64,000 nt of DNA from the NCBI GenBank assembly GCA_964016885.1, contig OZ024740.1:279620001-279684000 (forward strand), read 5' to 3'. This DNA comes from Eledone cirrhosa (lineage: Eukaryota). Below are positions 18,956-64,000 of this stretch, piece after piece (positions within the stretch are counted from its first letter, which is position 1; each line of letters starts with the position of its first letter). The position numbers and the translations under genes are program-made. The notes beneath the pieces were generated by a model. The model searched no databases. It was not told where the DNA came from and saw nothing but the letters and a program-made list of their open reading frames with translations.

Positions 18956-19959
18956 TTGGGGGATCCATTTTTTATTTGGGTGATCAATTTTTTATTTGGT
19001 GATCCATTTTGTATTTGGGGGATCCATTTTTTATTTGGGTGATCCATTTTTTATTTGGGGGATCCATTTTTTATTTGGGTGATCCATTTTTTATTTGGTG
19101 ATCCATTTTGTATTTGGGGGATCCATTTTTTATTTGGGTGATCCATTTTTTATTTGGGTGATCCATTTTTTATTTGAGGGATCCATTTTTTATTTGGGGG
19201 ATCCATTTTTTATTTGGGGGATCCATTTTTTATTTGATGGATCTCCCAAATAAAAAATACATCACCCAAATAAAAAATGGATCCCCCAAATAAAAAATGG
19301 ATCACCCAAATAAAAAATGGATCCCCCAAATAAAAAATGGATCACACAAATAAAAAATGGATCACCCAAATAAAAAATGAATCACCCAAATATAAAATAG
19401 ATCACCCAAATAAAAAATGGATCCCCCAAATAAAAAATGGATCCCTTTTTTATTTGGCGGATCCATTTTTTATTTGGGGGATCCATTATCTATTTGAGTG
19501 ATCCATTTTTTATTTGTGGGATCCATTTTTTATTTGGGTGATCCATTTTTTATTTGGGGGATCCATTTTTTATTTGGGTGATCCATTTTTTATTTGGTGA
19601 TCCATTTTTTATTTGGGGGATCCATTTTTTATTTGGGTGATCCATTTTTTATTTGGGTGATCCATTTTTTATTTGAGGGATCCATTTTTTATTTGGGGGA
19701 TCCATTTTTTATTTGATGGATCTCCCAAATAAAAAATAGATCACCCAAATAAAAAATGGATCCCCCAAATAAAAAATGGATCACCCACATAGAAACTGGA
19801 TCCCCCAAATAGAAAATGGATCCCCCCAAATAAAAAATGGATCCCCCAAATAAAAAATGGATCCCCCAAATAAAAAATGGATCCCCCAAATAAAAAATGG
19901 ATCCCCTAAATAAAAAATGGATCACCCAAATAAAAAATGGATCACCCAAATAAAAAATG

Positions 19960-38500: not shown

Positions 38501-41500
38501 AAAATGGATCCAAAAAATAAAAAATGGATCACCCAAATAAAAAATGGATCACCCCCCCAAAAAAATCGATCCCCAAATAAAAAATGGATCACCCAAATAA
38601 AAAATGGATTACCCAAATAAAAAATGGATCCCCCAAATAAAAAATGGATCACCCAAATAAAAAATGGATCCCCCAAATAAAAAATGGATCCCCCAAATAA
38701 AACATGGATCCTCCCCAATAAAATATGGATCACCCCCCCAAAAAATGGATCACCCAAATAAAAAATGGATCACCCAAATAAAAAATGGATCCCCCAAATA
38801 AAAAATGGATCACCCAAATAAAGAATGGATCACCCAAATAAAAAATGGACCCCCAAATAAAAAATGGATCACCCAAATAAAAAATGGATCACCCAAATAA
38901 AAAATGGATCCCCGAAATAAAAAATGGATCCGCCAAATAAAAAATGGATCCATTTTTTATTTGGGTGATCCATTTTTTATTTAGGGTGATCCGTTTTTAT
39001 TTGGGTGATCCATTTTTTATTTGGGTGATTCCTTTTTTATTTGGGTGATCCATTTTTTATTTGGGTGATCCATTTTTTATTTGAGTGATCCATTCTTTAT
39101 TTGAGGGATCCATTTTTTATTTGGGTGATCCATTTTTTATTTGGGGGATCCATTTTTTATTTGGGCGATCCATTTTTTATTTGGGTGATCCATTTTTTAT
39201 TTGGGTGATCCATTTTTTATTTGGGTGATCCATTTTTTATTTGGGGGATCCATTTTTTATTTGGGGGATCCATTTTTTATTTGGGTGATCCATTTTTTAT
39301 TTGGGGGATCCATTTTTTATTTGGGTGATCCATTTTTTATTTGGGTGATCCATTTTTTATTTGGGTGATCCATTTTTTATTTGAGGGATCCATTTTTTAT
39401 TTTTTGGATCCATTTTTTATTTGGGGGATCCATTTTTTATTTGGGTGATCCATTTTTTATTTGGGTGATCCATTCTTTATTTGGGGTATCCATTTTTTAT
39501 TTCGGGGTTCCATTTTTTATTTGGGGGATCCATCAAATAAAAAATGGATCACCCAAATAAAAAATGGATCATCCAAATAAAAACTGGATCCCCCAAATAA
39601 AAAATGGATCACCCAAATAAAAAATGGATAACCGAAATAGAAAATGGACCCCCAAATAAAAAATGGATCACCCAAATAAAAAATGGATCACCCAAATAAA
39701 AAATGGATCCCCAAATAAAAAATGGATCACCCAAATAAAAAATGGATCCCCCAAATACAAAATGGATCCCCCAAATAAAAAATGGATCCCCCAAATAAAA
39801 AAGGGAACCATTTTTTATTTGGGTGATCCATTTTTTATTTGGGTGATCAATTTTTTATTTGGGTGATTCATTTTTTATTTGGGTGATCCATTTTTAATTT
39901 TTGGGATCCATTTTTTATTTGGTGGATCCATTTTTTATTTGGGTGATCCATTTTTTATTTGGGTGATCCATTTTTTATTTGGGTGATCCATTTTTTATTT
40001 GGGTGATCCATTTTTTATTTGTTGGATCCCCCAAATAAAAAATGGAACCCCCAAATAAAAAATGGATCCCCCAAATAAAAAATGGATCACCCAAATAAAA
40101 AATGGATCCCCCCAAATAAAAAATGGATCACGCAAATAAAAAATGGATCCCCCAAATAAAAAATGGATCCCCCAAATAAAAAATGGATCCCCCAAATAAA
40201 AAATGAATCCCTGAAATAAAAAATGGATCCCCCAAATAAAAAAGGCATCCATTTTTTATTTGGGTGATCCATTTTTTATTTGGGGGATCCATTTTTTATT
40301 TGGGGGATCCATTTTTTATTTTGGGGATCCATTTTTTATTTGGGGGATCCATTTTTTATTTGCGTGATCCATTTTTTATTTGGGGGATCCATTTTTTATT
40401 TGGGTGATCCATTTTTTATTTGGGTGATCCATTTTTTATTTGGGGGTCCATTTTTTTATTTCGGTGATCCATTTTTTATTTGGGTGATCCATTTTTTATT
40501 TTTTGGATCCATTTTTTATTTGGGCGATCCATTTTTTATTTGGGTGATCCATTTTTTATTTGGGTGATCCATTTTTTATTTGGGTGATCCATTTTTTATT
40601 TGGGGGATCCATTTTTTATTTGGGTGATCCATTTTTTATTTGGGGGATCCATTTTTTATTTGGGGCTGCCATTTTTTATTTGGGGGATCCATCAAATAAA
40701 AAATGGATCACCCAAATAAAAACTGGATCCCCCAAATAAAAAATGGATCACCCAAATAAAAAATGGATAATCGAAATAAAAAATGGACCCCCAAATAAAA
40801 AATGGATCACTCAAATAAAAAATGGATCCCGCAAATAAAAAATGAATCCCTGAAATAAAAAATGGATCCCCCAAATAAAAAAGGGATCCATTTTTTATTT
40901 GGGTGATCCATTTTTTATTTGGGGGGATCCGTTTTTTATTTGGGCGATCCATTTTTTATTTGGGTGATCCATTTTTTATTTGGGGGATCCATTTTTTATT
41001 TGGGGGATCCATTTTTTATTTGGGGGATCCATTTTTTATTTGGGTGTTCCATTCTTTATTTGGGGGATCCAGTTTTTATTTGGGTGATCCATTTTTTGTT
41101 TGGGTGATCCATTTTTATTTGGGTGATCCATTTTTTATTTGGGGGATCCATTTTTTATTTGGGGGATCCATTTTTTATTTGGGGGATCCATTTTGTATTT
41201 TTTGGGTCCATTTTTTATTTGGGCGATCCATTTTTTATTTGGGTGATCCATTTTTTATTTGGGGGATCCATTTTTTATTTGGGGGATCCATTTTTTATTT
41301 TGGGGATCCATTTTTTATTTGGGGGATCCATTTTTTATTTGGGTGATTCATTTTTTATTTGGGGGATCAATTTTTTTACGGTGATCCATTTTGTATTTGG
41401 GGGATCCATTTTTTATTTGGGGGTTCCATTTTTTATTTGGGTGATCCATAAAAACAAAAAATGTATCACCCAAATAAAAAGTGGAACACCTAAATAAAAA

Positions 41501-43390
41501 ATGGATCCCCCCAAATAAAAAATGGATCACCCAGATAAAAAATGGATCCCTTTTTTATTTAGCGGATCCATTTTTTATTTCGGGGATCCATTCTTTATTT
41601 GGGGGATCCATTTTTTATTTGGGTGATCCATTTTTCATTTGGGTGATCCATTTTTTATTTGGGGGATCCATTTTTTATTTGGGTGATCCATTTTTTATTT
41701 GGGGGATCCATTTTTTATTTCGGTGATCCATTTTTTATTTGGGTGATCCATTTTTTATTTGGGGTTCCATTTTTTATTTGGGTGATCTATTTTTTATTTG
41801 GTGGATCCATTTTTTATTTGGGGGATCCATTTTTATTTGGGTGATCCATTTTTTATTTGGGTGATCCATTTTTTATTTGGGGGATCAATTTTTTATTTGG
41901 GTGATCCATTTTTTATTTGGGTGATCCATTTTTTATTTGGTGATCCATTTTTTATTTGGGGGATTCATTTTTTATTTGGGTGATCCATTTTTTATTTGGG
42001 TGATCCCTTTTTATTTGAGGTATCCATATTTAATTTGGGTGATCCATTTTTTATTTGGGTGATCCATTTTTTATTTGGGTGATCCATTTTTTATTTGGGT
42101 GATCCATTTTTTATTTGGGGGATCCATTTTTTATTTGGGTGATCCATTTTTTATTTGGGGGATCCATTTTTTATTTGGGGGATCCATTTTTTATTTGGTG
42201 GATCGATTTTTTATTTGGGGGATCCATTTTTTATTTGGGGGATCATATTTTTGGGGGGGATCCATTTTATATTTGGGTGATCCATTTTTTATTTAGGTGA
42301 TCCATTTTTTATTTGGGGGATCCATTTTTTATTTGGGTGATCCATTTTTTATTTGGGCGATCCATTTTTTATTTGGGTGATCCATTTTTTATTTGGGTGA
42401 TCCATTTTTTATTTGGGGGATCAATTTTTTATTTGGGTGATCCATTTTTTATTTGGGTGATCCATTCTTTATTTGGGTAATCCATTTTTTATTTGGGGGA
42501 TCCATTTTTTATTTGGGTGATCCATTTTTTATTTGGAGGATCCATTTTTTATTTGGGCGATCCATTTTTATATGGGGGATCCATTTTTTATTTGGTGGAT
42601 CCATTTTTTATTTAGGGGATCCATTTTTTATTTAGGGGATCCATTTTTTATTTTGGGGATCCATTTTATATTTGGGTGATCCATTTTTTATTTGGGTGAT
42701 CCATTTTTTATTTGGGGGATCCATTTTTTATTTGGGTGATCCATTTTTTATTTGGGGGATCAATTTTTTTTTCGGTGATCCATTTTTTATTTGGGGGATC
42801 CATTTTTTATTTGGGGGTTCCATTTTTTATTTGGGGGATCCATCAAACAAAAAATGGATCACCCAAATAAAAAGTGGATCACCTAAATAAAAAATGGATC
42901 CCCCAAATAAAAAATGTATCACCCAAATAAAAAATGGATCACCCAAACAAAAAATGTATCACCCAAATAAAAAATGGATCACCCAAATAAAAAATGGATC
43001 CACCAAATAAAAAATGGATCCCCCAAATAAAAAATAGATCACACAAATAAAAAATGGATCCCCCAAATAAAAAATGGATCACCCAAATAAAAAATGTATC
43101 ACCCAAATAAAAAATGGATAACCCAAATAAAAAATGGATCCCCCAAATAAAAAATAGATCACCCAAATAAAAATTGGATCACCCAAATAAAAAATGGATT
43201 CCCCAAATAAAAAATGGATCACCCAAATAAAAAATGGATCACCCAAATAAAAAATGGATCCCTTTTTTATTTGGGGGATCCATTTTTTATTTGGGTGATC
43301 AATTTTTTATTTGGGGGATCCATTTTTTATTTGGGGGATCCATATTATATTTGGGTGATCCATTTTTTATTTGGGTGATCCATTTTTTAT
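30950..43390. repeat. Higher-order repeat, two tandem copies of a ~6.1-6.4 kb unit (boundary ~37020)
   Basis: Offsets are 6066-6067 (31280/37347, 32202/38268) and then 6365-6366 (33914/40280, 34537/40903, 35710/42075, 36869/43234). Shared private variants include GGGGCTGCC, AAAGGCATCC and TTTACGGTG. Confidence 0.9.
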
Positions 43391-46300
43391 TTGGGCGATC
43401 CATTTTTTATTTGGGGGATACATTTTTTATTTGGGAGATCCATTTTTTATTTGGGTGATTCATTTTTTATTTGGGTGATCCATTTTTAATTTTTGGGATC
43501 CATTTTTTATTTGGTGGATCCATTTTTTATTTGGGTGATCCATTTTTTATTTGGGTGATCCATTTTTTATTTGGGTCATCCATTTTTTATTTGGGTGATC
43601 CATTTTTTATTTGGGTGATCCATTTTTTATTTGATGGATCCCCAAATATAAAATGGAACCCCCAAATAAAAAATGGATCCCCCAAACAAAAAATGGATCA
43701 CCCAAATAAAAAATGGATCCCCCAAATAAAAAATGGATCCCCCAAATAAAAAATGAATCCCTGAAATAAAAAATGGATCCCCCAAATAAAAAAGGGATCC
43801 ATTTTTTATTTGGGTGATCCATTTTTTATTTAGGGGGATCCGTTTTTTATTTGGGCGATCCATTTTTTATTTGGGTGATCCATTTTTTATTTGGGTGATC
43901 CATTTTTTATTTGGGGGATCCATTTTTTATTTGGGCGATCCATTTTTTATTTGGGTGATCCATTTTTTATTTGGGGGATCCATTTTTTATTGGGGGGATC
44001 CATTTTTTATTTGGGGGATCCATTTTTTATTTAGGGGATCCATTTTTTATTTGGGTGATCCATTTTTTATTTGGGGGATCCAGTTTTTATTTGGCTGATC
44101 CATTTTTTGTTTGGGTGATCCATTTTTATTTTTTGGATCCATTTTTTATTTGGGCGATCCATTTTTTATTTGGGTGATCCATTTTTTATTTGGGGGATCC
44201 ATTTTTTATTTGGGTGATCCATTTTTTATTTGGTGATCCATTTTGTATTTGGGGGATCCATTTTTTATTTGGGTGATCCATTTTTTATTTGGGGGATCCA
44301 TTTTTTATTTGGGTGATCCATTTTTTATTTGGTGATCCATTTTGTATTTGGGGGATCCATTTTTTATTTGGGTGATCCATTTTTTATTTGGGTGATCCAT
44401 TTTTTATTTGAGGGATCCATTTTTTATTTGGGGGATCCATTTTTTATTTGATGGATCTCCCAAATAAAAAATACATCACCCATATAAAAAATGGATCCCC
44501 CAAATAAAAAATGGATCACCCAAATAAAAAATGGATCCCCCAAATAAAAAATGGATCACCCAAATAAAAAGTGGATCACCCAAATAAAAAATGAATCACC
44601 CAAATATAAAATAGATCACCCAAATAAAAAATGGATCCCCCAAATAAAAAATGGATCCCTTTTTTATTTGGCGGATCCATTTTTTATTTGGGGGATCCAT
44701 TATCTATTTGAGTGATCCATTTTTTATTTGTGGGATCCATTTTTTATTTGGGTGATCCATTTTTTATTTGGGGGATCCATTTTTTATTTGGGTGATCCAT
44801 TTTTTATTTGGTGATCCATTTTTTATTTGGGGGATCCATTTTTTATTTGGGTGATCCATTTTTTATTTGGGTGATCCATTTTTTATTTGAGGGATCCATT
44901 TTTTATTTGGGGGATCCATTTTTTATTTGATGGATCTCCCAAATAAAAAATAGATCACCCAAATAAAAAATGGATCCCCCAAATAAAAAATGGATCACCC
45001 AAATAAAAACTGGATCCCCCAAATAAAAAATGGATCCCCCCAAATAAAAAATGGATCCCCCCAAATAAAAAATGGATCCCCTAAATAAAAAATGGATCAC
45101 CCAAATAAAAAATGGATCACCCAAATAAAAAATGGATCACCCAAATAAAAAATAGATCGCCCAAATAAAAAATGGATCCAAAAAATAAAAAATGGATCAC
45201 CCAAATAAAAAATGGATCACCCCCCAAAAAAATCGATCCCCAAATAAAAAATGGATCACCCAAATAAAAAATGGATCCCCCAAATAAAAAATGGATCACC
45301 CAAATAAAAAATGGATCCCCCAAATAAAAAATGGATACCCCAAATAAAAAATGGATCCCCCCCAATAAAAAATGGATCACCCCCCAAAAAAATGGATCAC
45401 CCAAATAAAAAATGGATCACCCAAATAAAAAATGGATCCCCCAAATAAAAAATGGATCACCCAAATAAAAAATGGATCACCCAAATAAAAAATGGACCCC
45501 CAAATAAAAAATGGATCACCCAAATAAAAAATGGATCACACAAATAAAAAATGGATCCCCGAAATAAAAAATGGATCCGCCAAATAAAAAATGGATCCAT
45601 TTTTTATTTGGGTGATCCATTTTTTATTTAGGGTGATCCGTTTTTATTTGGGTGATCCATTTTTTATTTGGGTGATTACTTTTTTATTTGGGTGATCCAT
45701 TTTTTATTTGGGTGATCCATTTTTTATTTGAGTGATCCATTCTTTATTTGAGGGATCCATTTTTTATTTGGGTGATCCATTTTTTATTTGGGGGATCCAT
45801 TTTTTATTTGGGCGATCCATTTTTTATTTGGGTGATCCATTTTTTATTTGGGTGATCCATTTTTTATTTGGGGAATCCATTTTTTATTTGGGGGATCCAT
45901 TTTTTATTTGGGTGATCCATTTTTTATTTGGGGGATCCATTTTTAATTTGGGTGATCCATTTTTTATTTGGGTGATCCATTTTTTATTTGGGTGATCCAT
46001 TTTTTATTTGAGGGATCCATTTTTTATTTTTTGGATCCATTTTTTATTTGGGGGATCCATTTTTTATTTGGGTGATCCATTTTTTATTTGGGTGATCCAT
46101 TCTTTATTTGGGGTATCCATTTTTTATTTCGGGGTTCCATTTTTTATTTGGGGGATCCATCAAATAAAAAATGGATCACCCAAATAAAAAATGGATCATC
46201 CAAATAAAAACTGGATCCCCCAAATAAAAAATGGATCACCCAAATAAAAAATGGATAACCGAAATAAAAAATGGACCCCCAAATAAAAAATGGATCACCC

Positions 46301-49300
46301 AAATAAAAAATGGATCACCCAAATAAAAAATGGATCCCCCAAATAAAAAATGGATCACCCAAATAAAAAATGGATCCCCCAAATACAAAATGGATCCCCC
46401 AAATAAAAAATGGATCCCCCAAATAAAAAAGGGAACCATTTTTTATTTGGGTGATCCATTTTTTATTTGGGTGATCAATTTTTTATTTGGGTGATTCATT
46501 TTTTATTTGGGTGATCCATTTTTAATTTTTGGGATCCATTTTTTATTTGGTGGATCCATTTTTTATTTGGGTGATCCATTTTTTATTTGGGTGATCCATT
46601 TTTTATTTGAGGGATCCATTTTTTATTTGGGGGATCCATTTTTTATTTGATGGATCTCCCAAATTAAAAATAGATCACCCAAATAAAAAATGGATCCCCC
46701 AAATAAAAAATGGATCACCCAAATAAAAACTGGATCCCCCAAATAAAAAATGGATCCCCCCAAATAAAAAATGGATCCCCCCAAATAAAAAATGGATCCC
46801 CTAAATAAAAAATGGATCACCCAAATAAAAAATGGATCACCCAAATAAAAAATGGATCACCCAAATAAAAAATAGATCGCCCAAATAAAAAATGGATCCA
46901 AAAAATAAAAAATGGATCGCCCAAATAAAAAATGGATCCCCCAAATAAAAAATGGATCACCCAAATAAAAAATGGATCACCCAAATAAAAAATGGATCGC
47001 CCAAATAAAAAACGGATCCCCCTAAATAAAAAATGGATCACCCAAATAAAAAATGGATCCCTTTTTTATTTGGGGGATCCATTTTTTATTTCAGGGATTC
47101 ATTTTTTATTTGGGGGATCCATTTTTTATTTGGTGGATCCATTTTTTATTTGGGTGATCCATTTTTTGTTTGGGGGATCCATTTTTTATTTGGGGGTTCC
47201 ATTTTATATTTGGGGATCCATCAAATAAAAAATGGATCACCCAAATAAAAAATGGATCACCCAAATAAAAAATGGATCCCCCAAATAAAAAATGGATCCC
47301 CCAAATAAAAAATGAATCCCTGAAATAAAAAATGGATCCCCCAAATAAAAAATGAATCCCTGAAATAAAAAATGGATCCCCCAAATAAAAAATGGATCCC
47401 CCAAATAAAAAATGGATCACCCAAATAAAAAATGGATCCCTTTTTTATTTGGGGGATCCATTTTTTATTTCAGGGATTCATTTTTTATTTGGGGGATCCA
47501 TTTTTTATTTCAGGGATTCATTTTTTATTTGGGGGATCCATTTTTTATTTGGGGGATCCATTTTTTATTTGGGTGATCCATTTTTTATTTGGGTGATCCA
47601 TTTTTTATTTGATGGATCCCCAAATATAAAATGGAACCCCCAAATAAAAAATGGATCCCCCAAACAAAAAATGGATCACCCAAATAAAAAATGGATCCCC
47701 CAAATAAAAAATGGATCCCCCAAATAAAAAATGAATCCCTGAAATAAAAAATGGATCCCCCAAATAAAAAAGGGATCCATTTTTTATTTGGGTGATCCAT
47801 TTTTTATTTAGGGGGATCCGTTTTTTATTTGGGCGATCCATTTTTTATTTGGGTGATCCATTTTTTATTTGGGTGATCCATTTTTTATTTGGGGGATCCA
47901 TTTTTTATTTGGGCGATCCATTTTTTATTTGGGTGATCCATTTTTTATTTGGGGGATCCATTTTTTATTGGGGGGATCCATTTTTTATTTGGGGGATCCA
48001 TTTTTTATTTAGGGGATCCATTTTTTATTTGGGTGATCCATTTTTTATTTGGGGGATCCAGTTTTTATTTGGCTGATCCATTTTTTGTTTGGGTGATCCA
48101 TTTTTATTTTTTGGATCCATTTTTTATTTGGGCGATCCATTTTTTATTTGGGTGATCCATTTTTTATTTGGGGGATCCATTTTTTATTTGGGTGATCCAT
48201 TTTTTATTTGGTGATCCATTTTGTATTTGGGGGATCCATTTTTTATTTGGGTGATCCATTTTTTATTTGGGGGATCCATTTTTTATTTGGGTGATCCATT
48301 TTTTATTTGGTGATCCATTTTGTATTTGGGGGATCCATTTTTTATTTGGGTGATCCATTTTTTATTTGGGTGATCCATTTTTTATTTGAGGGATCCATTT
48401 TTTATTTGGGGGATCCATTTTTTATTTGATGGATCTCCCAAATAAAAAATACATCACCCAAATAAAAAATGGATCCCCCAAATAAAAAATGGATCACCCA
48501 AATAAAAAATGGATCCCCCAAATAAAAAATGGATCACCCAAATAAAAAGTGGATCACCCAAATAAAAAATGAATCACCCAAATATAAAATAGATCACCCA
48601 AATAAAAAATGGATCCCCCAAATAAAAAATGGATCCCTTTTTTATTTGGCGGATCCATTTTTTATTTGGGGGATCCATTATCTATTTGAGTGATCCATTT
48701 TTTATTTGTGGGATCCATTTTTTATTTGGGTGATCCATTTTTTATTTGGGGGATCCATTTTTTATTTGGGTGATCCATTTTTTATTTGGTGATCCATTTT
48801 TTATTTGGGGGATCCATTTTTTATTTGGGTGATCCATTTTTTATTTGGGTGATCCATTTTTTATTTGAGGGATCCATTTTTTATTTGGGGGATCCATTTT
48901 TTATTTGATGGATCTCCCAAATAAAAAATAGATCACCCAAATAAAAAATGGATCCCCCAAATAAAAAATGGATCACCCAAATAAAAACTGGATCCCCCAA
49001 ATAAAAAATGGATCCCCCCAAATAAAAAATGGATCCCCCCAAATAAAAAATGGATCCCCTAAATAAAAAATGGATCACCCAAATAAAAAATGGATCACCC
49101 AAATAAAAAATGGATCACCCAAATAAAAAATAGATCGCCCAAATAAAAAATGGATCCAAAAAATAAAAAATGGATCACCCAAATAAAAAATGGATCACCC
49201 CCCCAAAAAATCGATCCCCAAATAAAAAATGGATCACCCAAATAATAAATGGATCCCCCAAATAAAAAATGGATCACCCAAATAAAAAATGGATCCCCCA

Positions 49301-49395
49301 AATAAAAAATGGATCCCCCAAATAAAAAATGGATCCCCCCCAATAAAAAATGGATCACCCCCCAAAAAAATGGATCACCCAAATAAAAAATGGAT
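40898..49395 (+). repeat. Left arm (~8.5 kb) of giant inverted duplication
   Basis: ORFs mirror those in 50012-58513 on the opposite strand with a near-constant coordinate sum of 99409-99430, e.g. 42672..42890+/56539..56757-, 43607..43822-/55607..55822+, 48881..49102-/50307..50528+. Confidence 0.93.
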
Positions 49396-50011
49396 CACCC
49401 AAATAAAAAATGGATCCCCCAAATAAAAAATGGATCACCCAAATAAAAAATGGATCACCCAAATAAAAAATGGACCCCCAAATAAAAAATGGATCACCCA
49501 AATAAAAAATGGATCACACAAATAAAAAATGGATCCCCGAAATAAAAAATGGATCCGCCAAATAAAAAATGGATCCATTTTTTATTTGGGTGATCCATTT
49601 TTTATTTAGGGTGATCCGTTTTTATTTGGGTGATCCATTTTTTATTTGGGTGATTCCTTTTTTATTTGGGTGATCCATTTTTTATTTGGGTGATCCATTT
49701 TTTATTTGAGTGATCCATTCTTTATTTGAGGGATCCATTTTTTATTTGGGTGATCCATTTTTTATTTGGGGGATCCATTTTTTATTTGGGCGATCCATTT
49801 TTTATTTGGGTGATCCATTTTTTATTTGGGTGATCCATTTTTTATTTGGGGGATCCATTTTTTATTTGGGGGATCCATTTTTTATTTGGGTGATCCATTT
49901 TTTATTTGGGGGATCCATTTTTAATTTGGGTGATCCATTTTTTATTTGGTTGATCCATTTTTTATTTGGGTGATCCATTTTTTATTTGAGGGATCCATTT
50001 TTTATTTTTTG
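43570..50011. repeat. Direct duplication with 3978-bp offset (~43570-46030 repeated at ~47550-50011)
   Basis: ORF pairs 43607/47585, 43814/47792, 44903/48881, 45117/49095 and 45732/49710 all differ by 3978. Confidence 0.9.
46903..47930. repeat. Near-perfect ~1-kb palindrome (arms ~490 bp, ~48-bp spacer, centre ~47416)
   Basis: Mirror ORF pairs sum to 94833: 46992..47228+/47605..47841-, 47033..47248+/47585..47800-, 47106-/47727+. The doubled TGAATCCCTG variant is mirrored as doubled CAGGGATTCA. Confidence 0.9.
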
Positions 50012-53000
50012 GATCCATTTTTTATTTGGGTGATCCATTTATTTGGGGGGTGATCCATTTTTTATTGGGGGGGGATCCATTTTTTATTTGGGGGATCCAT
50101 TTTTTATTTGGGGGATCCATTTTTTATTTGGGTGATCCATTTTTTATTTGGGGGATCCATTTTTTATTTGGGTGATCCATTTTTTATTTGGGGATCGATT
50201 TTTTTGGGGGGTGATCCATTTTTTATTTGGGTGATCCATTTTTTATTTTTTGGATCCATTTTTTATTTGGGCGATCTATTTTTTATTTGGGTGATCCATT
50301 TTTTATTTGGGTGATCCATTTTTTATTTGGGTGATCCATTTTTTATTTAGGGGATCCATCTTTTATTTGGGGGGATCCATTTTTTATTTGGGGGGATCCA
50401 TTTTTTATTTGGGGGATCCAGTTTTTATTTGGGTGATCCATTTTTTATTTGGGGGATCCATTTTTTATTTGGGTGATCTATTTTTTATTTGGGAGATCCA
50501 TCAAATAAAAAATGGATCCCCCAAATAAAAAATGGATCCCTCAAATAAAAAATGGATCACCCAAATAAAAAATGGATCACCCAAATAAAAAATGGATCCC
50601 CCAAATAAAAAATGGATAACCAAATAAAAAATGGATCACCCAAATAAAAAATGGATCCCCCAAATAAAAAATGGATCACCCAAATAAAAAATGGATCCCA
50701 CAAATAAAAAATGGATCACTCAAATAGATAATGGATCCCCCAAATAAAAAATGGATCCGCCAAATAAAAAAGGGATCCATTTTTTATTTGGGGGATCCAT
50801 TTTTTATTTGGGTGATCTATTTTATATTTGGGTGATTCATTTTTTATTTGGGTGATCCACTTTTTATTTGGGTGATCCATTTTTTATTTGGGGGATCCAT
50901 TTTTTATTTGGGTGATCCATTTTTTATTTGGGGGATCCATTTTTTATTTGGGTGATGTATTTTTTATTTGGGAGATCCATCAAATAAAAAATGGATCCCC
51001 CAAATAAAAAATGGATCCCTCAAATAAAAAATGGATCACCCAAATAAAAAATGGATCACCCAAATAAAAAATGGATCCCCCAAATACAAAATGGATCACC
51101 AAATAAAAAATGGATCACCCAAATAAAAAATGGATCCCCCAAATAAAAAATGGATCACCCAAATAAAAAATGGATCCCCCAAATACAAAATGGATCACCA
51201 AATAAAAAATGGATCACCCAAATAAAAAATGGATCCCCCAAATAAAAAATGGATCACCCAAATAAAAAATGGATCGCCCAAATAAAAAATGGATCCAAAA
51301 AATAAAAATGGATCACCCAAACAAAAAATGGATCAGCCAAATAAAAACTGGATCCCCCAAATAAAAAATGGATCACCCAAATAAAAAATGGATCCCCTAA
51401 ATAAAAAATGGATCCCCCAAATAAAAAATGGATCCCCCCAATAAAAAATGGATCCCCCAAATAAAAAATGGATCACCCAAATAAAAAATGGATCGCCCAA
51501 ATAAAAAATGGATCCCCCAAATAAAAAATGGATCACCCAAATAAAAAATGGATCACCCAAATAAAAAATGGATCGCCCAAATAAAAAACGGATCCCCCTA
51601 AATAAAAAATGGATCACCCAAATAAAAAATGGATCCCTTTTTTATTTGGGGGATCCATTTTTTATTTCAGGGATTCATTTTTTATTTGGGGGATCCATTT
51701 TTTATTTGGGGGATCCATTTTTTATTTGGGTGATCCATTTTTTGTTTGGGGGATCCATTTTTTATTTGGGGGTTCCATTTTATATTTGGGGATCCATCAA
51801 ATAAAAAATGGATCACCCAAATAAAAAATGGATCACCCAAATAAAAAATGGATCCCCCAAATAAAAAATGGATCCCCCAAATAAAAAATGAATCCCTGAA
51901 ATAAAAAATGGATCCCCCAAATAAAAAATGAATCCCTGAAATAAAAAATGGATCCCCCAAATAAAAAAGGGATCCATTTTTTATTTGGGTGATCCATTTT
52001 TTATTTGGGGGATCCATTTTTTATTTGGGGGATCCATTTTTTATTTCAGGGATTCATTTTTTATTTGGGGGATCCATTTTTTATTTCAGGGATTCATTTT
52101 TTATTTGGGGGATCCATTTTTTATTTGGGGGATCCATTTTTTATTTGGGTGATCCATTTTTTATTTGGGTGATCCATTTTTTATTTGATGGATCCCCAAA
52201 TATAAAATGGAACCCCCAAATAAAAAATGGATCCCCCAAACAAAAAATGGATCACCCAAATAAAAAATGGATCCACCAAATAAAAAATGGATCCCCCAAA
52301 TAAAAAATGAATCCCTGAAATAAAAAATGGATCCCCCAAATAAAAAAGGGATCCATTTTTTATTTGGGTGATCCATTTTTTATTTAGGGGGATCCGTTTT
52401 TTATTTGGGCGATCCATTTTTTATTTGGGTGATCCATTTTTTATTTGGGTGATCCATTTTTTATTTGGGGGATCCATTTTTTATTTGGGCGATCCATTTT
52501 TTATTTTTTGGATCCATTTTTTATTTGGGCGATCTATTTTTTATTTGGGTGATCCATTTTTTATTTGGGTGATCCATTTTTTATTTGGGTGATCCATTTT
52601 TTATTTAGGGGATCCATTTTTTATTTGGGGGGATCCATTTTTTATTTGGGGGGATCCATTTTTTATTTGGGGGATCCAGTTTTTATTTGGGTGATCCATT
52701 TTTTATTTGGGGGATCCATTTTTTATTTGGGTGATCTATTTTTAATTTGGGAGATCCATCAAATAAAAAATGGATCCCCCAAATAAAAAATGGATCCCTC
52801 AAATAAAAAATGGATCACCCAAATAAAAAATGGATCACCCAAATAAAAAATGGATCACCCAAATAAAAAATGGATCCACCAAATAAAAAATGGATCCCAA
52901 AAATTAAAAATGGATCACCCAAATAAAAAATGAATCACCCAAATAAAAAATTGATCACCCAAATAAAAAATGGATCACCCAAATAAAAAATGGTTCCCTT

Positions 53001-56000
53001 TTTTATTTGGGGGATCCATTTTTTATTTGGGGGATCCATTTTGTATTTGGGGGATCCATTTTTTATTTGGGTGATCCATTTTTTATTTGGGGGATCCATT
53101 TTTTATTTGGGTGATCCATTTTTTATTTGGGTGATCCATTTTTTATTTGGGGGTCCATTTTTTATTTCGGTTATCCATTTTTTATTTGGGTGATCCATTT
53201 TTTATTTGGGGGATCCAGTTTTTATTTGGATGATCCATTTTTTATTTGGGTGATCCATTTTTTATTTGATGGATCCCCCAAATAAAAAATGGAACCCCGA
53301 AATAAAAAATGGATACCCCAAATAAAGAATGGATCACCCAAATAAAAAATGGATCACCCAAATAAAAAATGGATCCCCCAAATAAAAAATGGATCCAAAA
53401 AATAAAAAATGGATCCCTCAAATAAAAAATGGATCACCCAAATAAAAAATGGATCACCCAAATAAAAAATGGATCACCCAAATTAAAAATGGATCCCCCA
53501 AATAAAAAATGGATCACCCAAATAAAAAATGGATCCCCCAAATAAAAAATGGATCCCCCAAATAAAAAATGGATCACCCAAATAAAAAATGGATCACCCA
53601 AATAAAAAATGGATCGCCCAAATAAAAAATGGATCCCCCAAATAAAAAATGGATCACCCAAATAAAAAATGGATCCCTCAAATAAAGAATGGATCACTCA
53701 AATAAAAAATGGATCACCCAAATAAAAAATGGATCACCCAAATAAAAAAGGAATCACCCAAATAAAAAATGGATCACCCAAATAAAAACGGATCACCCTA
53801 AATAAAAAATGGATCACCCAAATAAAAAATGGATCCATTTTTTATTTGGCGGATCCATTTTTTATTTCGGGGATCCATTTTTTATTTGTGTGATCCATTT
53901 TTTATTTGGGTGATCCATTTTTTATTTGGGGGTCCATTTTTTATTTGGGTGATCCCGTTTTTATTTGGGTGATCCATTGTTTATTTGGGGGATCCATTTT
54001 TTATTTGGGTGATCCATTTTTTATTTGGGTGATCCATTTTTTGGGGGGGTGATCCATTTTTTATTGGGGGGGATCCATTTTTTATTTGGGGTATCCATTT
54101 TTTATTTGGGGGATCCATTTTTTATTTGGGTGATCCATTTTTTATTTGGGGGATCCATTTTTTATTTGGGTGATCCATTTTTTATTTGGGGATCGATTTT
54201 TTGGGGGGGTGATCCATTTTTTATTTGGGTGATCCATTTTTTATTTTTTGGATCCATTTTTTATTTGGGCGATCTATTTTTTATTTGGGTGATCCATTTT
54301 TTATTTGGGTGATCCATTTTTTATTTGGGTGATCCATTTTTTATTTAGGGGATCCATTTTTTATTTGGGGGGATCCATTTTTTATTTGGGGGGATCCATT
54401 TTTTATTTGGGGGATCCAGTTTTTATTTGGGTGATCCATTTTTTATTTGGGGGATCCATTTTTTATTTGGGTGATCTATTTTTTATTTGGGAGATCCATC
54501 AAATAAAAAATGGATCCCCCAAATAAAAAATGGATCCCTCAAATAAAAAATGGATCACCCAAATAAAAAATGGATCACCCAAATAAAAAATGGATCCCCC
54601 AAATAAAAAATGTATCACCAAATAAAAAATGGATCACCCAAATAAAAAATGGATCCCCCAAATAAAAAATGGATCACCCAAATAAAAAATGGATCCCACA
54701 AATAAAAAATGGATCACTCAAATAGATAATGGATCCCCCAAATAAAAAATGGATCCGCCAAATAAAAAAAGGATCCATTTTTTATTTGGGGGATCCATTT
54801 TTTATTTGGGTGATCTATTTAATATTTGGGTGATTCATTTTTTATTTGGGTGATCCACTTTTTATTTGGGTGATCCATTTTTTATTTGGGGGATCCATTT
54901 TTTATTTGGGTGATCCATTTTTTATTTGGGGGATCCATTTTTTATATGGGTGATGTATTTTTTATTTGGGAGATCCATCAAATAAAAAATGGATCCCCCA
55001 AATAAAAAATGGATCCCTCAAATAAAAAATGGATCACCCAAATAAAAAATGGATCACCCAAATAAAAAATGGATCCCCCAAATACAAAATGGATCACCAA
55101 ATAAAAAATGGATCACCCAAATAAAAAATGGATCCCCCAAATAAAAAATGGATCACCCAAATAAAAAATGGATCCCCCAAATACAAAATGGATCACCAAA
55201 TAAAAAATGGATCACCCAAATAAAAAATGGATCCCCCAAATAAAAAATGGATCACCCAAATAAAAAATGGATCGCCCAAATAAAAAATGGATCCAAAAAA
55301 TAAAAATGGATCACCCAAACAAAAAATGGATCAGCCAAATAAAAACTGGATCCCCCAAATAAAAAATGGATCACCCAAATAAAAAATGGATCCCCTAAAT
55401 AAAAAATGGATCCCCCAAATAAAAAATGGATCCCCCCAATAAAAAATGGATCCCCCAAATAAAAAATGGATCACCCAAATAAAAAATGGATCGCCCAAAT
55501 AAAAAATGGATCCCCCAAATAAAAAATGGATCACCCAAATAAAAAATGGATCACCCAAATAAAAAATGGATCGCCCAAATAAAAAACGGATCCCCCTAAA
55601 TAAAAAATGGATCACCCAAATAAAAAATGGATCCCTTTTTTATTTGGGGGATCCATTTTTTATTTCAGGGATTCATTTTTTATTTGGGGGATCCATTTTT
55701 TATTTGGGGGATCCATTTTTTATTTGGGTGATCCATTTTTTGTTTGGGGGATCCATTTTTTATTTGGGGGTTCCATTTTATATTTGGGGATCCATCAAAT
55801 AAAAAATGGATCACCCAAATAAAAAATGGATCACCCAAATAAAAAATGGATGACCCAAATAAAAAATGGATCACCCAAATAAAAAATGGATCACCCAAAT
55901 AAAAAATGGATCCACCAAATAAAAAATGGATCCCAAAAATTAAAAATGGATCACCCAAATAAAAAATGAATCACCCAAATAAAAAATGGATCTCCCAAAT

Positions 56001-58513
56001 AAAAAATGTATCCCCCAAATAAAAAATGGATCGCCCAAATAAAAAATGGATCACCCAAATAAAAAATGGATCACCCAAATATAATATGGATCCCCCAAAT
56101 AAAAAATGGATCCCCCAAATAAAAAATTGATCACCCAAATAAAAAATGGATCCCCCAAATAAAAAAGGGATCCATTTTTTATTTGGGTGATCCATTTTTT
56201 ATTTGGGTGATCCATTTTTTATTTGGGGAATCCATTTTTTATTTGGGTGATCCAATTTTTATTTGGGTGATCTATTTTTTATTTGGGGGATCCATTTTTT
56301 ATTTGGGTTATCCATTTTTTATTTGGGTGATCCATTTTTTATTTGGGTGATCCATTTTTTATTTGGGGGATCCATTTTTTATTTGTGTGATCTATTTTTT
56401 ATTTGGGGGATCCATTTTTTATTTGGTGGATCCATTTTTTATTTGGGTGATCCATTTTTTATTTGGGTGATACATTTTTTGTTTGGGTGATCCATTTTTT
56501 ATTTGGGTGATACATTTTTTATTTGGGGGATCCATTTTTTATTTAGGTGATCCACTTTTTATTTGGGTGATCCATTTTTTGTTTGATGGATCCCCCAAAT
56601 AAAAAATGGAACCCCCAAATAAAAAATGGATCCCCCAAATAAAAAATGGATCACCGAAAAAAAAATTGATCCCCCAAATAAAAAATGGATCACCCAAATA
56701 AAAAATGGATCCCCCAAATAAAAAATGGATCACCCAAATAAAAAATGGATCACCCAAATATAAAATGGATCCCCAAAATAAAAAATGGATCCCCTAAATA
56801 AAAAATGGATCCCCTAAATAAAAAATGGATCCACCAAATAAAAAATGGATCCCCCATATAAAAATGGATCGCCCAAATAAAAAATGGATCCTCCAAATAA
56901 AAAATGGATCACCCAAATAAAAAATGGATCCCCCAAATAAAAAATGGATTACCCAAATAAAAAATGGATCACCCAAATAAAAAATGGATCACCCAAATAA
57001 AAAATTGATCCCCCAAATAAAAAATGGATCACCCAAATAAAAAATGGATCACCCAAATAAAAAATGGATCGCCCAAATAAAAAATGGATCACCCAAATAA
57101 AAAATGGATCCCCCAAATAAAAAATGGATCACCTAAATAAAAAATGGATCACCCAAATATAAAATGGATCCCCCCCAAAAATATGATCCCCCAAATAAAA
57201 AATGGATCCCCCAAATAAAAAATCGATCCACCAAATAAAAAATGGATCCCCCAAATAAAAAATGGATCCCCCAAATAAAAAATGGATCACCCAAATAAAA
57301 AATGAATCCCCCAAATAAAAAATGGATCACCCAAATAAAAAATGGATCACCCAAATAAAAAATGGATCACCCAAATAAAAAATGGATCACCCAAATTAAA
57401 TATGGATACCTCAAATAAAAAGGGATCACCCAAATAAAAAATGGATCACCCAAATAAAAAATGAATCCCCCAAATAAAAAATGGATCACCAAATAAAAAA
57501 TGGATCACCCAAATAAAAAATGGATCACCCAAATAAAAAATTGATCCCCCAAATAAAAAATGGATCACCCAAATAAAAAATGGATCACCCAAATAAAAAA
57601 TGGATCCCCCAAATAAAAAATGGATCCACCAAATAAAAAATAGATCACCCAAATAAAAAATGGAACCCCAAATAAAAAATGGATCACCCAAATAAAAAAT
57701 GGATCACCGAAATAAAAAATGGATCCCCCAAATAAAAAATGGATCACCCAAATAAAAAATGGATCCCCCAAATAAAAAATGGATCACCCAAATGAAAAAT
57801 GGATCACCCAAATAAAAAATGGATCCCCCAAATAAAGAATGGATCCCCGAAATAAAAAATGGATCCGCTAAATAAAAAAGGGATCCATTTTTTATCTGGG
57901 TGATCCATTTTTTATTTGGGGGGATCCATTTTTTATTTAGGTGTTCCACTTTTTATTTGGGTGATACATTTTTTGTTTTTATGGATCACCCAAATAAAAA
58001 ATGGAACCCCCAAATAAAAAATGGATCCCCCAAATACAAAATGGATCACCGTAAAAAAAATTGATCCCCCAAATAGAAAATGAATCACCCAAATAAAAAA
58101 TGGATCCCCCAAATAAAAAATGGATCCCCAAAATAAAAAATGGATCCCCCAAATAAAAAATGGATCCCCCAAATAAAAAATGGATCACCCAAATAAAAAA
58201 TGGATCGCCCAAATAAAAAATGGACCCCAAAAATACAAAATGGATCCCCCAAATAAAAAATGGATCCCCCAAATAAAAAATGGATCACCCAAATAAAAAT
58301 GGATCACCCAAACAAAAAATGGATCACCCAAATAAAAACTGGATCCCCCAAATAAAGAATGGAACACCCAAATAAAAAATGGATCCCCCAAATAAAAAAT
58401 GGATCCCCCAAATAAAAAATGGATCCCCCAAATAAAAAATGGATCACCCAAATAAAAAATGGATCGCCCAAATAAAAAACGGATCCCCCCAAATAAAAAA
58501 TGGATCACCCAAA
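50012..58513 (-). repeat. Right arm (~8.5 kb) of giant inverted duplication
   Basis: Reverse complement of 40898-49395 including private variants: GGGTCATCC ~43563 / GGATGACCC ~55848, CCCATATAAAA ~44479 / TTTTATATGGG ~54940, GATCCATAAAAACAAA ~41443 / TTTGTTTTTATGGATC ~57972. Confidence 0.93.
51479..52506. repeat. Second copy of the ~1-kb palindrome (centre ~51992) inside the right giant arm
   Basis: Mirror ORF pairs sum to 103985: 51568..51804+/52181..52417- and 51609..51824+/52161..52376-. Confidence 0.9.
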
Positions 58514-61500
58514 CAAAAACTGGATCACCCAAATAAAAAATGGATCACCCAAATAAAAAATGGATCCCCCAAATAAAAAATGGATCACCCAAATAAAAAA
58601 TGGATCCCCCAAATAAAAAATGGATCTGCCAAATAAAAAATGGATCACACAAATAAAAAATGGATCCCCCAAATAAAAATGGATCCGCCAAATAAAAAAT
58701 GGATCACACAAATAAAAAATGGATCCCCCCCAAAAAATGGATCACCCAACTAAAAAATGGATCACCTAAATAAAAAATGGATCCCCCAAATAAAAAATGG
58801 ATCACCCAAACAAAAACTGGATCACCCAAATAAAAAATGGATCACCCAAATAAAAAATGGATCCCCCAAATAAAAAATGGATCACCCAAATAAAAAATGG
58901 ATCACCCAAATGTAAAATGGATCCCCCAAATAAAAAATGGAACCCCCAAATAAAAAATGGATCCCCCAAATAAAAAATGGATCCAACAAATAAAAAATGG
59001 ATCACCCAAATAAAAAATGGATCACCCAAATAAAAAATGGATCACCCAAATAAAAAATGGATCCCCCAAATAAAAAATGGATCACCCAAATAAAAAATGG
59101 ATACCCCAAATAAAAAATGGATCCACCAAATAAAAAATGGATCACCCAAATAAAAAATGGATCACCCAAATGTAAAATGGATCCCCCAAATAAAAATAGG
59201 GTCCCCCAAATAAAAATAGATCCCCCAAATAAAAAATGGATCCAACAAATAAAAAATGGATCACCAAAATAAAAAATGGGTCACCAAAATAAAAAATGGA
59301 TCTCCCAAATAAAAAATGGATCACCCAAATAAAAAATGGATCACCCAAATAAAAAATGGATCCCCCAAATAAAAAATGGATCACCCAAATCAAAAATGGA
59401 TCACCCAAATAAAAAATGGATCACCCAAATAAAAAATGGATCACCCAAATAAAAAATGTATCACCCAAATAAAAAATGGATCCGCCAAATAAAAAATGGA
59501 TCACCCAAATAAAAAATGGTTCCCCCAAATAAAAAATGGATCTGCCAAATAAAAAATGGATCACAAATAAAAAATGGATCCCCCAAATAAAAATGGATCC
59601 GCCAAATAAAAAATGGATCACACAAATAAAAAATGGATCCCCCAAATAAAAATGGATCACCCAACTAAAAAATGGATCACCTAAATAAAAAATGGATCCC
59701 CAAATAAAAAATGGATCCTCCAAATGTAAAATGGATCCGCCAAATAAAAAATGGAACCCCCAAATAAAAAATGGATCCCCCAAATAAAAAATGGATCCAA
59801 CAAATAAAAAATGGATCACCCAAATGTAAAATGGATCCCCCAAATAAAAAATGGAACCCCCAAATAAAAAATGGATCCCACAAATAAAAAATGGATCCAA
59901 CAAATAAAAAATGGATCACCCAAATAAAAAATGGATCACCCAAATAAAAAATGGATCACCCAAATAAAAAATGGATCCCCCAAATAAAGAATGATCACCC
60001 AAATAAAAAATGGATACCCCAAATAAAAAATGGATCCACCAAATAAAAAATGGATCACCCAAATAAAAAATGGATTACCCAAATGTAAAATGGATCCCCC
60101 AAATAAAAATAGGGTCCCCCAAATAAAAATGGATCCCGCAAATAAAAAATGGATCCAACAAATAAAAAATGAATCACCCAAATAAAAAATGGATCACCCA
60201 AATCAAAAATGGATCTCCCAAATAAAAAATGGATCCCCCAAATAAAAAATGGATCACCCAAATAAAAAATGGATCCCCCAAATAAAAAATGGATCACCCA
60301 AATCAAAAATGGATCACCCAAATAAAAAATGGATCCCCCAAATAAAAAATGGATCACCCAAATAAAAAATGGATCACCCAAATAAAAAATGGATCACCCA
60401 AATAAAAAATTGGATCACCCAAATAAAAAATGGATCCCCCAAATAAAAAATGGATCACACAAATAAAATATGGATCACCCAAATAAAAAATGGATCACCC
60501 AAATAAAAAATGGATCCCCCAAATAAAAAATGGATCACCCAAATAAAAAATGGATCCCCCAAATAAAAAATGGATCACCCAAATAAAAAATGGATCGCCC
60601 AAATAAAAAACGGATCCCCCCAAATAAAAAATGGATCACCCAAACAAAAACTGGATCACCCAAATAAAAAATGGATCGCCCAAATAAAAAACGGATCCCC
60701 CCAAATAAAAAATGGATCACCCAAACAAAAACTGGATCTGCCAAATAAAAAATGGATCACACAAATAAAAAATGGATCCCCCAAATAAAAATGGATCCGC
60801 CAAATAAAAAATGGATCACACAAATAAAAAATGGATCCCCCCCCAAAAAATGGATCACCCAACTAAAAAATGGATCACCTAAATAAAAAATGGATCCCCC
60901 AAATAAAAAATGGATCACCCAAACAAAAACTGGATCACCCAAATAAAAAATGGATCACCCAAATAAAAAATGGATCCCCCAAATAAAAAATGGATCACCC
61001 AAATAAAAAATGGATCACCCAAATGTAAAATGGATCCCCCAAATAAAAAATGGAACCCCCAAATAAAAAATGGATCCCCCAAATAAAAAATGGATCCAAC
61101 AAATAAAAAATGGATCACCCAAATAAAAAATGGATCACCCAAATAAAAAATGGATCACCCAAATAAAAAATGGATCCCCCAAATAAAAAATGGATCACCC
61201 AAATAAAAAATGGATACCCCAAATAAAAAATGAATCCACCAAATAAAAAATGGATCACCCAAATAAAAAATGGATCACCCAAATGTAAAATGGATCCCCC
61301 AAATAAAAATAGGGTCCCCCAAATAAAAATAGATCCCCCAAATAAAAAATGGATCCAACAAATAAAAAATGGATCACCAAAATAAAAAATGGGTCACCAA
61401 AATAAAAAATGGATCTCCCAAATAAAAAATGGATCACCCAAATAAAAAATGGATCACCCAAATAAAAAATGGATCCCCCAAATAAAAAATGGATCACCCA

Positions 61501-64000
61501 AATCAAAAATGGATCACCCAAATAAAAAATGGATCACCCAAATAAAAAATGGATCACCCAAATAAAAAATGTATCACCCAAATAAAAAATGGATCCGCCA
61601 AATAAAAAATGGATCACCCAAATAAAAAATGGTTCCCCCAAATAAAAAATGGATCTGCCAAATAAAAAATGGATCACAAATAAAAAATGGATCCCCCAAA
61701 TAAAAATGGATCCGCCAAATAAAAAATGGATCACACAAATAAAAAATGGATCCCCCAAATAAAAATGGATCACCCAACTAAAAAATGGATCACCTAAATA
61801 AAAAATGGATCCCCAAATAAAAAATGGATCCTCCAAATGTAAAATGGATCCGCCAAATAAAAAATGGAACCCCCAAATAAAAAATGGATCCCCCAAATAA
61901 AAAATGGATCCAACAAATAAAAAATGGATCACCCAAATGTAAAATGGATCCCCCAAATAAAAAATGGAACCCCCAAATAAAAAATGGATCCCACAAATAA
62001 AAAATGGATCCAACAAATAAAAAATGGATCACCCAAATAAAAAATGGATCACCCAAATAAAAAATGGATCACCCAAATAAAAAATGGATCCCCCAAATAA
62101 AGAATGGATCACCCAAATAAAAAATGGATACCCCAAATAAAAAATGGATCCACCAAATAAAAAATGGATCACCCAAATAAAAAATGGATTACCCAAATGT
62201 AAAATGGATCCCCCAAATAAAAATAGGGTCCCCCAAATAAAAATGGATCCCGCAAATAAAAAATGGATCCAACAAATAAAAAATGAATCACCCAAATAAA
62301 AAATGGATCACCCAAATCAAAAATGGATCTCCCAAATAAAAAATGGATCCCCCAAATAAAAAATGGATCACCCAAATAAAAAATGGATCCCCCAAATAAA
62401 AAATGGATCACCCAAATCAAAAATGGATCACCCAAATAAAAAATGGATCCCCCAAATAAAAAATGGATCACCCAAATAAAAAATGGATCACCCAAATAAA
62501 AAATGGATCACCCAAATAAAAAATTGGATCACCCAAATAAAAAATGGATCCCCCAAATAAAAAATGGATCACACAAATAAAATATGGATCACCCAAATAA
62601 AAAATGGATCACCCAAATAAAAAATGGATCCCCCAAATAAAAAATGGATCACCCAAATAAAAAATGGATCCCCCAAATAAAAAATGGATCTGCCAAATAA
62701 AAAATGGATCACACAAATAAAAAATGGATCCCCCAAATAAAAATGGATCCGCCAAATAAAAAATGGATCACACAAATAAAAAATGGATCCCCCAAATAAA
62801 AATGGATCACCCAACTAAAAAATGGATCAGCTAAATAAAAAATGGATCCCCCAAATAAAAAATGGATCACCCAAATAAAAAATGGATCCCCCAAATAAAA
62901 AATGGATCCCCCAAATAAAAAATGGAACCCCAAATAAAAAATGGATCCCCCAAATAAAAAATGGATCCCCCAAATAAAAAATGGATCCAACAAATAAAAA
63001 ATGGATCACCCAAATAAAAAATGGATCCCCCAAATAAAAAATGGATCACCCAAACAAAAACTGGATCACCCAAATAAAAAATGGATCACCCAAATAAAAA
63101 ATGGATCCCCCAAATAAAAAATGGATCACCCAAATAAAAAATGGATCACCCAAATGTAAAATGGATCCCCCAAATAAAAAATGGAACCCCCAAATAAAAA
63201 ATAGATCCCCCAAATAAAAAATGGATCCAACAAATAAAAAATGGATCACCCAAATAAAAAATGGATCACCCAAATAAAAAATGGATCACCCAAATAAAAA
63301 ATGGATCACCCAAATAAAAAATGGATCCCCCAAATAAAAAATGGATCACCCAAATAAAAAATGGATACCCCAAATAAAAAATGGATCCACCAAATAAAAA
63401 ATGGATCACCCAAATAAAAAATGGATCACCCAAATGTAAAATGGATCACCCAAATGTAAAATGGACCCCCCAAATAAAAATAGGTTCCCCCAAATAAAAA
63501 TAGATCCCCCAAATAAAAAATGGATCCAACAAATAAAAAATGGATCACCAAAATAAAAAATGGGTCACCAAAATAAAAAATGGATCTCCCAAATAAAAAA
63601 TGGATCACCCAAATAAAAAATGGATCACCCAAATAAAAAATGGATCCCCCAAATAAAAAATGTATCACCCAAATAAAAAATGGATCCCCCAAATAAAAAA
63701 TGGATCACCCAAATAAAAAATGGTTCCCCCAAATAAAAAATGTATCTGCCAAATAAAAAATGGATCACACAAATAAAAAATGGATCCCCCAAATAAAAAT
63801 GGATCCGCCAAATAAAAAATGGATCACACAAATAAAAAATGGATCCCCCAAATAAAAATGGATCACCCAACTAAAAAATGGATCACCTAAATAAAAAATG
63901 GATCCCCAAATAAAAAATGGATCCCCCAAATAAAAAATGGATCCGCCAAATAAAAAATGGATCACACAAATAAAAAATGGATCCCCCAAATAAAAATGGA
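57985..64000 (-). repeat. Unidirectional (A-rich on +) satellite domain; from ~58513 a distinct subfamily with a ~2.1-kb higher-order repeat (~2.6 copies)
   Basis: No orientation switch in 6 kb. ORF offsets are 2113-2114 (58802/60915, 59142/61255, 59421/61534, 60055/62169) and 2131 (60915/63046). Characteristic variants are AAATGTAAAA, CCAACTAAAA, AAATCAAAAA, GGATCTGCC and AATAGGGTCCCC. Confidence 0.92.

Follow-up and report, generated by a model that had tools for sequence, protein, structure and literature searches.

How does a satellite array come to carry two adjacent copies of the same 8.5-kb tract in opposite orientations? This question is raised by a stretch of 64,000 bp from Eledone cirrhosa (assembly GCA_964016885.1, contig OZ024740.1, positions 279,620,001-279,684,000, forward strand). 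We refer to the full stretch as the window and give all coordinates within it, position 1 being its first letter; every structure described is one of the assembled sequence. An AT-rich 20-bp satellite (1-64000, both orientations, 32% GC) fills the entire window. Within it, 40898-58513 forms an inverted duplication of ~17.6 kb, with arms of ~8.5 kb, that is interstitial in pure satellite. The duplication is present in the assembly and is probably real in the genome too; by itself, it is a rearrangement of an ordinary, known class.

The arms are reverse complements of each other

To compare the arms, we reverse-complemented 50012-58513 (8,502 bp) and aligned it globally to 40898-49396 (8,499 bp). 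The left arm, the presumed template, lies on the plus strand and comprises 426 monomers with 21 strand switches; the right arm, the presumed copy, is its reverse complement on the minus strand. The two matched in 8,459 of 8,479 aligned columns (99.76% identity), with five gaps. Their differences consist of 20 substitutions, two 20-bp indels that each correspond to a whole monomer (at ~41125, inside a run of identical monomers, and at ~46553), and three 1-bp indels at 41371, 41830, and 49335. The longest exact inverted match within 40898-58513 was 2,238 bp, compared with 106-141 bp in all 10 shuffles of monomer order that preserved the orientation blocks.

A sequence-only reading of this stretch had paired 50012-58513 with the reverse complement of 40898-49395 and called for an alignment of the two with a count of their differences. 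The alignment given above agrees with this pairing and places the end of the left arm, the partner of 50012, at 49396. The indels that had been located at ~41150 and ~46580 are those at ~41125 and ~46553, the expected spacer of ~615 bp measures 615 bp, and all four arm-private variants named are present, with the changed bases at 45678, 45874, 53956-53957, and 53979. The proposed reversal of the plus-strand base bias stands in part. A mild AT skew is mirrored between the arms (-0.12 left, +0.12 right), whereas the marked A-richness (+0.54) is that of the single-orientation domain at 58514-64000, outside the duplication. The three 1-bp indels were not listed in that reading, nor were three features described below: the self-complementary spacer, the inverted homology pre-loaded by 133 strand switches, and a nested fold-back.

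Spacer and junctions

The spacer (49397-50011, plus strand) was not duplicated by the event. It tracks an older direct paralogue, at an offset of -3978, to its last base at 50011. This paralogy reflects an older direct duplication on the plus strand (43597-50011, with 43597-46033 corresponding to 47575-50011; seven substitutions in 2,437 bp), which defines the native continuation of the spacer. Because the match to the paralogue ends at 50030 and identity with the reversed arm begins at 50012, the inner switch point lies within the 19 bp at 50012-50030, which are identical in both donors, the forward continuation and the reverse complement of 49378-49396.

The spacer contains one pre-existing strand switch, a minus-to-plus junction at 49558-49589 that forms a perfect 32-bp palindrome with 16-bp arms. 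Its edges are homologous in inverted orientation: read in the register of the product, 183 of 195 positions agree between 49378-49573, a minus tract, and 49835-50030, a plus tract. As a single strand, the spacer is predicted to fold with -194.9 kcal/mol, a stability reached by none of 20 shuffles and expected for inverted monomers.

At the outer junction, the 28 bp at 58486-58513 are common to the reversed start of the left arm and to the native distal context, of which there are three native copies (58800, 60913, and 63044). The tracts around this junction match at 188 of 198 positions. Both junctions are seamless and keep the monomer register, and the tracts that flank them are ~94-95% similar. 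Arms, spacer, both junction windows, and lattice register are thus directly observed. An adjacent reverse-complement copy, an unduplicated spacer, inverted homology at its edges, and a second, homology-mediated far junction are among the features by which fold-back inverted duplications are recognized, and the single-copy spacer, the edge homology, and the second homologous junction support the fold-back or template switch that had been suggested from the letters.

A nested fold-back

The left arm contains a smaller inverted duplication at 46903-47930, whose arms (46903-47392 and 47441-47930) differ by one mismatch in 490 positions and are separated by a 48-bp spacer. This spacer also holds one pre-existing switch, and the outer end of the repeat overlaps its direct donor by 16 bp. 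The mirror image of the nested repeat lies near 51.5-52.5 kb, within the right arm. All inverted matches of at least 300 bp in the window involve either the giant or the nested event. We considered whether the nested repeat could be an eroded triplication and rejected this, as the adjoining block 47435-47594 does not correspond to the beginning of the 3978-bp duplicate (43257-43596).

Age and divergence of the arms

The arms have diverged by 0.236% substitutions, and nine direct pairs in the window range from 0.000% (3,554 and 3,192 bp) to 0.534%. The giant event is therefore intermediate in age and not the youngest in the window, so that the epithet "recent" given to it earlier is right only in a relative sense, two direct duplications showing zero substitutions. 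These two (3,554 bp, 11854-18941; 3,192 bp, 8603-11794 versus 16426-19618) are either very young or the result of assembly over-expansion.

Using context counts and paralogues, we placed six derived changes on the left arm and 13 on the right (p = 0.17); one pair, 45226/49204, is of uncertain polarity because it falls on a boundary between a C-run and an A-run. Differences did not cluster significantly (p = 0.18-0.58), and with these values error-prone copying of the right arm is not claimed. A tract of 2,238 bp (46553-48790) is free of differences between the arms (p = 0.016 under uniform placement). At the same type of C-run/A-run boundary, the four paralogous sites 45226, 49204, 50205, and 54203 show a crossed pattern (A, C, A, and C, respectively), which needs two changes or conversion from one copy to another.

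Proposed mechanism

A large-loop fold-back followed by homologous capture of a distal satellite tract is the best reading of these data, and we hold it with moderate confidence. What we infer in it are the initiating lesion, the direction of copying, and the later drift of the arms. In this model, a resected break or the stalling of a fork would have left a free 3' end at 50012-50030; by folding onto the inverted monomers of 49378-49573, this end would have formed an imperfect stem of ~195 bp and primed ~8.5 kb of reverse copying. The copied strand would then have rejoined the co-oriented distal minus tract through the homology at 58486-58513, by annealing or invasion, and the arms would since have diverged by 19 substitution events and five indels. 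Fold-back would be easy in this array, where orientation already changes at 133 sites in 64 kb, each time at one and the same short palindrome, and each event of homologous switching would supply more inverted homology for the next. The same switching, repeated, likely spreads founder junctions in both orientations.

This model is supported by the seamless, in-register junctions (19 and 28 bp) together with a nested fold-back of like geometry, and by arm differences that are mostly substitutions (20, compared with three of the run-length type), with derived changes on both arms. The placement of all 133 switches at the hinge, the rare markers common to many junctions in both orientations, and the three occurrences of the outer-junction sequence, all described below, also count in its favour, as does its agreement with fold-back duplications of yeast (PMC7467729) and human (PMC3907307).

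Several points weigh against it. The inner junction is single-copy and is known from the assembled sequence; the deletion expected beyond 50030 is not seen in the one assembled allele. Fold-back at a break, template switching at a fork, and long inverted gene conversion leave an identical product. Neither the asymmetry between the arms nor the clustering of their differences is significant (p values above), and the difference-free 2,238 bp could reflect later conversion between the arms or mixing in the assembly or the reads. The three copies of the outer-junction sequence described below could represent older homology, 107 bp being common with the copy at 60538-60644. Finally, the distal 2.1-kb repeat seems younger than the arms (one substitution in 1,950 bp), a difference that is not significant (Fisher p = 0.16).

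Alternative explanations

An older, dispersed direct duplicate of 40898-49396 might have lain beside the distal tract and later have been inverted by crossover between opposite monomer tracts, with no fold-back involved. Direct duplications of 1-3.5 kb are indeed common in the window, at offsets of up to 16 kb, the occurrence of junction modules in both orientations implies that inversions have taken place, and the all-minus distal domain could be the beginning of a large inverted block. However, this route requires two events and an inversion breakpoint no more than 615 bp from the end of the duplicate. Ungapped direct duplicates in the window never exceed 3.6 kb, and the nested repeat reproduces the short-spacer geometry. 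We therefore regard this sequence of events as unlikely.

Long-read fold-back artefacts have arms derived from one molecule, differences typical of sequencing errors, and a second segment that starts within ~200 bp. In principle, the structure could have entered the assembly through a chimeric or fold-back read, or through a change from one haplotype to the other at the inner junction, with errors or heterozygosity accounting for the arm differences. Genomic fold-back reads are put at ~0.55-0.6% for Oxford Nanopore Technologies (ONT) data and may recur at one site (PMC12870357), and AT-rich inverted-repeat satellites bias long-read sequencing (10.64898/2026.07.13.738322). The single-copy inner junction, known from the assembly alone, would fit such an origin. 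A search of sequencing runs listed seven runs of one organism, possibly including the source sample, and four of these, all from one study, contain part of 44900-54500 (shares of 0.24-0.37, never above half); they do not serve as evidence here. A divergence of 0.24% is a plausible allelic distance, and since an allelic difference would look alike, the assembly may have passed between haplotypes at the inner junction. Set against the artefact hallmarks, the assembled sequence has a spacer of 615 bp, differences dominated by substitutions, and whole-monomer indels. Only three 1-bp indels were found, against 20 substitutions and 553 runs of at least five identical bases in the left arm, and if 0.236% were noise, the 3,554-bp pair with zero differences would have P = 2e-4, a value that weakens if that pair is an over-expansion of the assembly. 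With that proviso, the scarcity of 1-bp indels and this P value argue that the divergence of the arms is real. Moreover, the right arm joins a different sub-domain rather than re-running through 1-40897, the outer-junction sequence occurs three times, and the monomer register is kept exactly across a joint whose perfect overlap is just 19 bp. HiFi reads are reported to be virtually free of fold-backs (PMC12870357), which would weigh against an artefact if the assembly was built from reads of that type. We consider an artefact distinctly improbable.

The sequence-only reading had also likened the structure to the products of breakage-fusion-bridge cycles. In such a history, the chromosome would have become dicentric by fold-back and then have broken at 8.5 kb, a very short distance from fusion to break, before being healed by recombination into the satellite. 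A spacer with inverted homology is the first step of this route in human inverted duplications (PMC3907307). In the window, there is a single extra copy; its outer end at 58513 shows no second fold-back or telomere and makes an in-register homologous joint into the same satellite, and neither repeated fold-backs with stepped copy number nor healing by telomere or translocation was found within the window. Another explanation is required for inverted variants that are interstitial on a chromosome whose end is intact (PMC10766186). The likeness is thus not indicated, this history is very unlikely, and breakage-fusion-bridge is not needed for the 17.6-kb structure.

Least probable of all is an eroded inverted triplication by origin-dependent inverted-repeat amplification (ODIRA), with leading-to-lagging switches at two forks, reintegration, and later loss of one junction: the 48-bp spacer of the nested repeat falls within the 40-80 nt ODIRA range (PMC10766186) and, in Aspergillus, AT-rich centromeric DNA is where inverted triplications are concentrated (10.1101/2025.01.14.632981), but the giant spacer has 615 bp, no third copy follows 58513, the nested repeat is no clean triplication as its adjoining block shows, and a third, direct-orientation copy with two short-spacer junctions was not encountered in the window, where only the nested spacer fits in size.

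Strand switches keep the 20-bp lattice

The monomer, as delimited with Tandem Repeats Finder (TRF), consists of a palindromic GATC/GGATCC hinge and a 16-bp spacer and can be read either way round. Cutting the whole window at GATC gave 3,204 units of 17-24 bp, 3,141 of which differ by no more than three edits from at least one of the four most frequent units; the maximum was nine edits. Because every unit is a monomer variant and none exceeds nine edits, a non-satellite insert (transposon or unique DNA) is ruled out. The same holds for a foldback transposon with satellite-bearing termini, such as Tetris or Rehavkus: all 3,204 units are satellite, and the ends of the arms merge into monomer tracts.

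Monomers are arranged in 134 orientation blocks with a median of 14 monomers (~280 bp), giving 133 switches, or ~2,100 per Mb. Every switch occurs at a GATC hinge and keeps the 20-bp lattice: 109 are flanked by 20-bp units on both sides, and the other 24 have one unit of 19 or 21 bp. The hinge provides the best inverted self-alignment of the monomer, a run of six in the G variant versus three for the next best.

The boundary is the same in all 67 plus-to-minus junctions and lies two bases from GGATCC; a search with four motifs found no perfect palindrome among them (0 matches). A rare adjacent hinge variant is present in 40 of the 67; outside the two inverted repeats, the counts are 12 and 21, in both orientations. 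Of the 66 minus-to-plus junctions, 55 are offset by one base and 11 are perfect palindromes; a rare second monomer is common to 22 of them, 11 perfect and 11 offset, in opposite orientations. One plus-to-minus type and two related minus-to-plus types thereby cover all 133 switches. In 1-58000, the central palindrome is broken within 3 bp of its centre in 122 of the 133 switches and is perfect over 10-16 bp per arm in 11.

These patterns suggest that two founder junctions, seeded by the GGATCC palindrome of the monomer, probably spread to 133 copies by repeated duplication and inversion. Two results caution against over-reading the spread by inversion. Once the two inverted repeats are set aside, none of 38 exact two-sided 76-bp junction modules is present in both orientations, and in 1-46902 the longest exact inverted match has 136 bp; older inversions are consequently deduced from one-sided markers only.

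A further reading holds that this flip-flop satellite is self-propagating, its 6-bp palindrome seeding two junctions that fold-backs multiply, and that the lattice is selected as a structural signal of centromeres or heterochromatin. It would concern a hinge every 20 bp irrespective of strand and a hairpin tip every ~480 bp, with perfect palindromes mostly broken at the tip, and would provide a case outside insects. We find it doubtful.

None of five 17-base motifs of the monomer returned a paper from the main texts in PubMed Central (PMC) and bioRxiv; figures and supplements lay outside the search, and a published name is possible. Among the matches listed, no work on octopus satellites dealt with this 20-bp repeat. 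No link is drawn to the 20-bp parrot satellite SatW20 (10.1101/2021.03.08.434498), for which the available part of the report offers no sequence to compare.

Comparison with known systems

Human inverted duplications carry a single-copy spacer with inverted homology, spacers ranging from 766 to 70,466 bp (Hermetz et al., PMC3907307), and in yeast, large-loop foldback inversions undergo homology-mediated secondary rearrangement (PMC7467729). The duplication described here shares with both the adjacent inverted copy, the unduplicated spacer, the inverted homology at its edges, and a second junction based on homology. Unlike them, it is interstitial, 8.5 kb long, composed of pure satellite, and apparently inherited long enough for 0.24% divergence; its homology consists of opposite monomer tracts rather than 2-8 bp or pairs of Alu or long interspersed nuclear elements (LINEs). 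Its spacer also differs from the human ones in being shorter (615 bp) and self-complementary.

The macro-dyad satellites of Tribolium (T. madens, PMC13081366; T. freemani, 10.1101/2024.12.02.626372) resemble this array in their opposite sub-arrays and in the reuse of a few highly conserved types of inversion site. In contrast, the monomer here has 20 bp and the blocks a median of ~280 bp, compared with several kilobases in Tribolium, and switches number ~2,100 per Mb, whereas a Tribolium array of ~12 kb mostly has two sub-arrays. Here, switching takes place at a palindrome within the monomer and leaves the 20-bp lattice intact, and the giant repeat is a copy at the level of individual variants, which goes beyond symmetry at the level of monomers. 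Multi-kilobase inverted sub-arrays intermingled with a second satellite were not encountered in the window, which holds one satellite in 134 blocks. As size and the two-satellite feature both fail, we do not assign the array to the Tribolium type despite its reuse of few junctions.

Centromeric minisatellites of Chionographis, Chio1 and Chio2 (PMC10264360), are similar in their short monomers (23 and 28 bp), internal dyads, and mixed orientation. This likeness is one of description, and the centromeric location is that of the Chionographis arrays. Strand switches within arrays are also known from human HSat3B5 and beta-satellite, with more than 200 inversion breakpoints, from a 1.7-Mb inversion in chromosome 1 alpha satellite (10.1101/2021.07.12.452052), and from cichlid centromeres, where blocks alternate and inverted centroids occur (PMC13652916). 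Unlike those, the present array has 133 switches in 64 kb and no non-satellite element at them. A survey of 325 genomes found that satellites tend toward one strand, head-to-tail (10.64898/2026.09.17.752431).

The conserved inversion sites of Tribolium were previously read as possibly functional (PMC13081366). The window may offer, base by base, a neutral route to a Tribolium-like pattern, in which tandem duplications and seamless fold-backs multiply two founder junctions; two such events, of 8.5 kb and 0.5 kb, can still be read. If reads confirm the structure, the choice between a selected structure and a by-product of copying becomes testable, and an 8.5-kb inverted repeat of 99.8% identity would be seen to persist in an AT-rich satellite. 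The density of switches, their phase-locking, and the legible record of their multiplication might surprise specialists.

The distal domain

Beyond the right arm, 58514-64000 (minus strand) forms a single-orientation domain of the same satellite, with 274 monomers, no switches, and a higher-order period of ~2.1 kb. Of its 44 monomer types, 19 are absent from 1-50011. The shift to this switch-free sub-domain at 58514 is abrupt, 64 of 273 monomers being of types absent from 1-50011.

Three sites, 58462, 60593, and 60674, carry a 61-bp sequence across the outer junction in which markers of the left domain are fused to a distal-only monomer; the markers themselves have seven copies in the left domain. 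The two extra copies (60593-60653 and 60674-60734, minus strand) lie within 60593-60734. The simplest reading of the three occurrences would be that the outer junction was re-copied twice after it had formed. At 60573-60734, an 81-bp piece spanning the outer junction is present twice in tandem, at the boundary of the distal 2.1-kb repeat and ~2.1 kb from its likely source.

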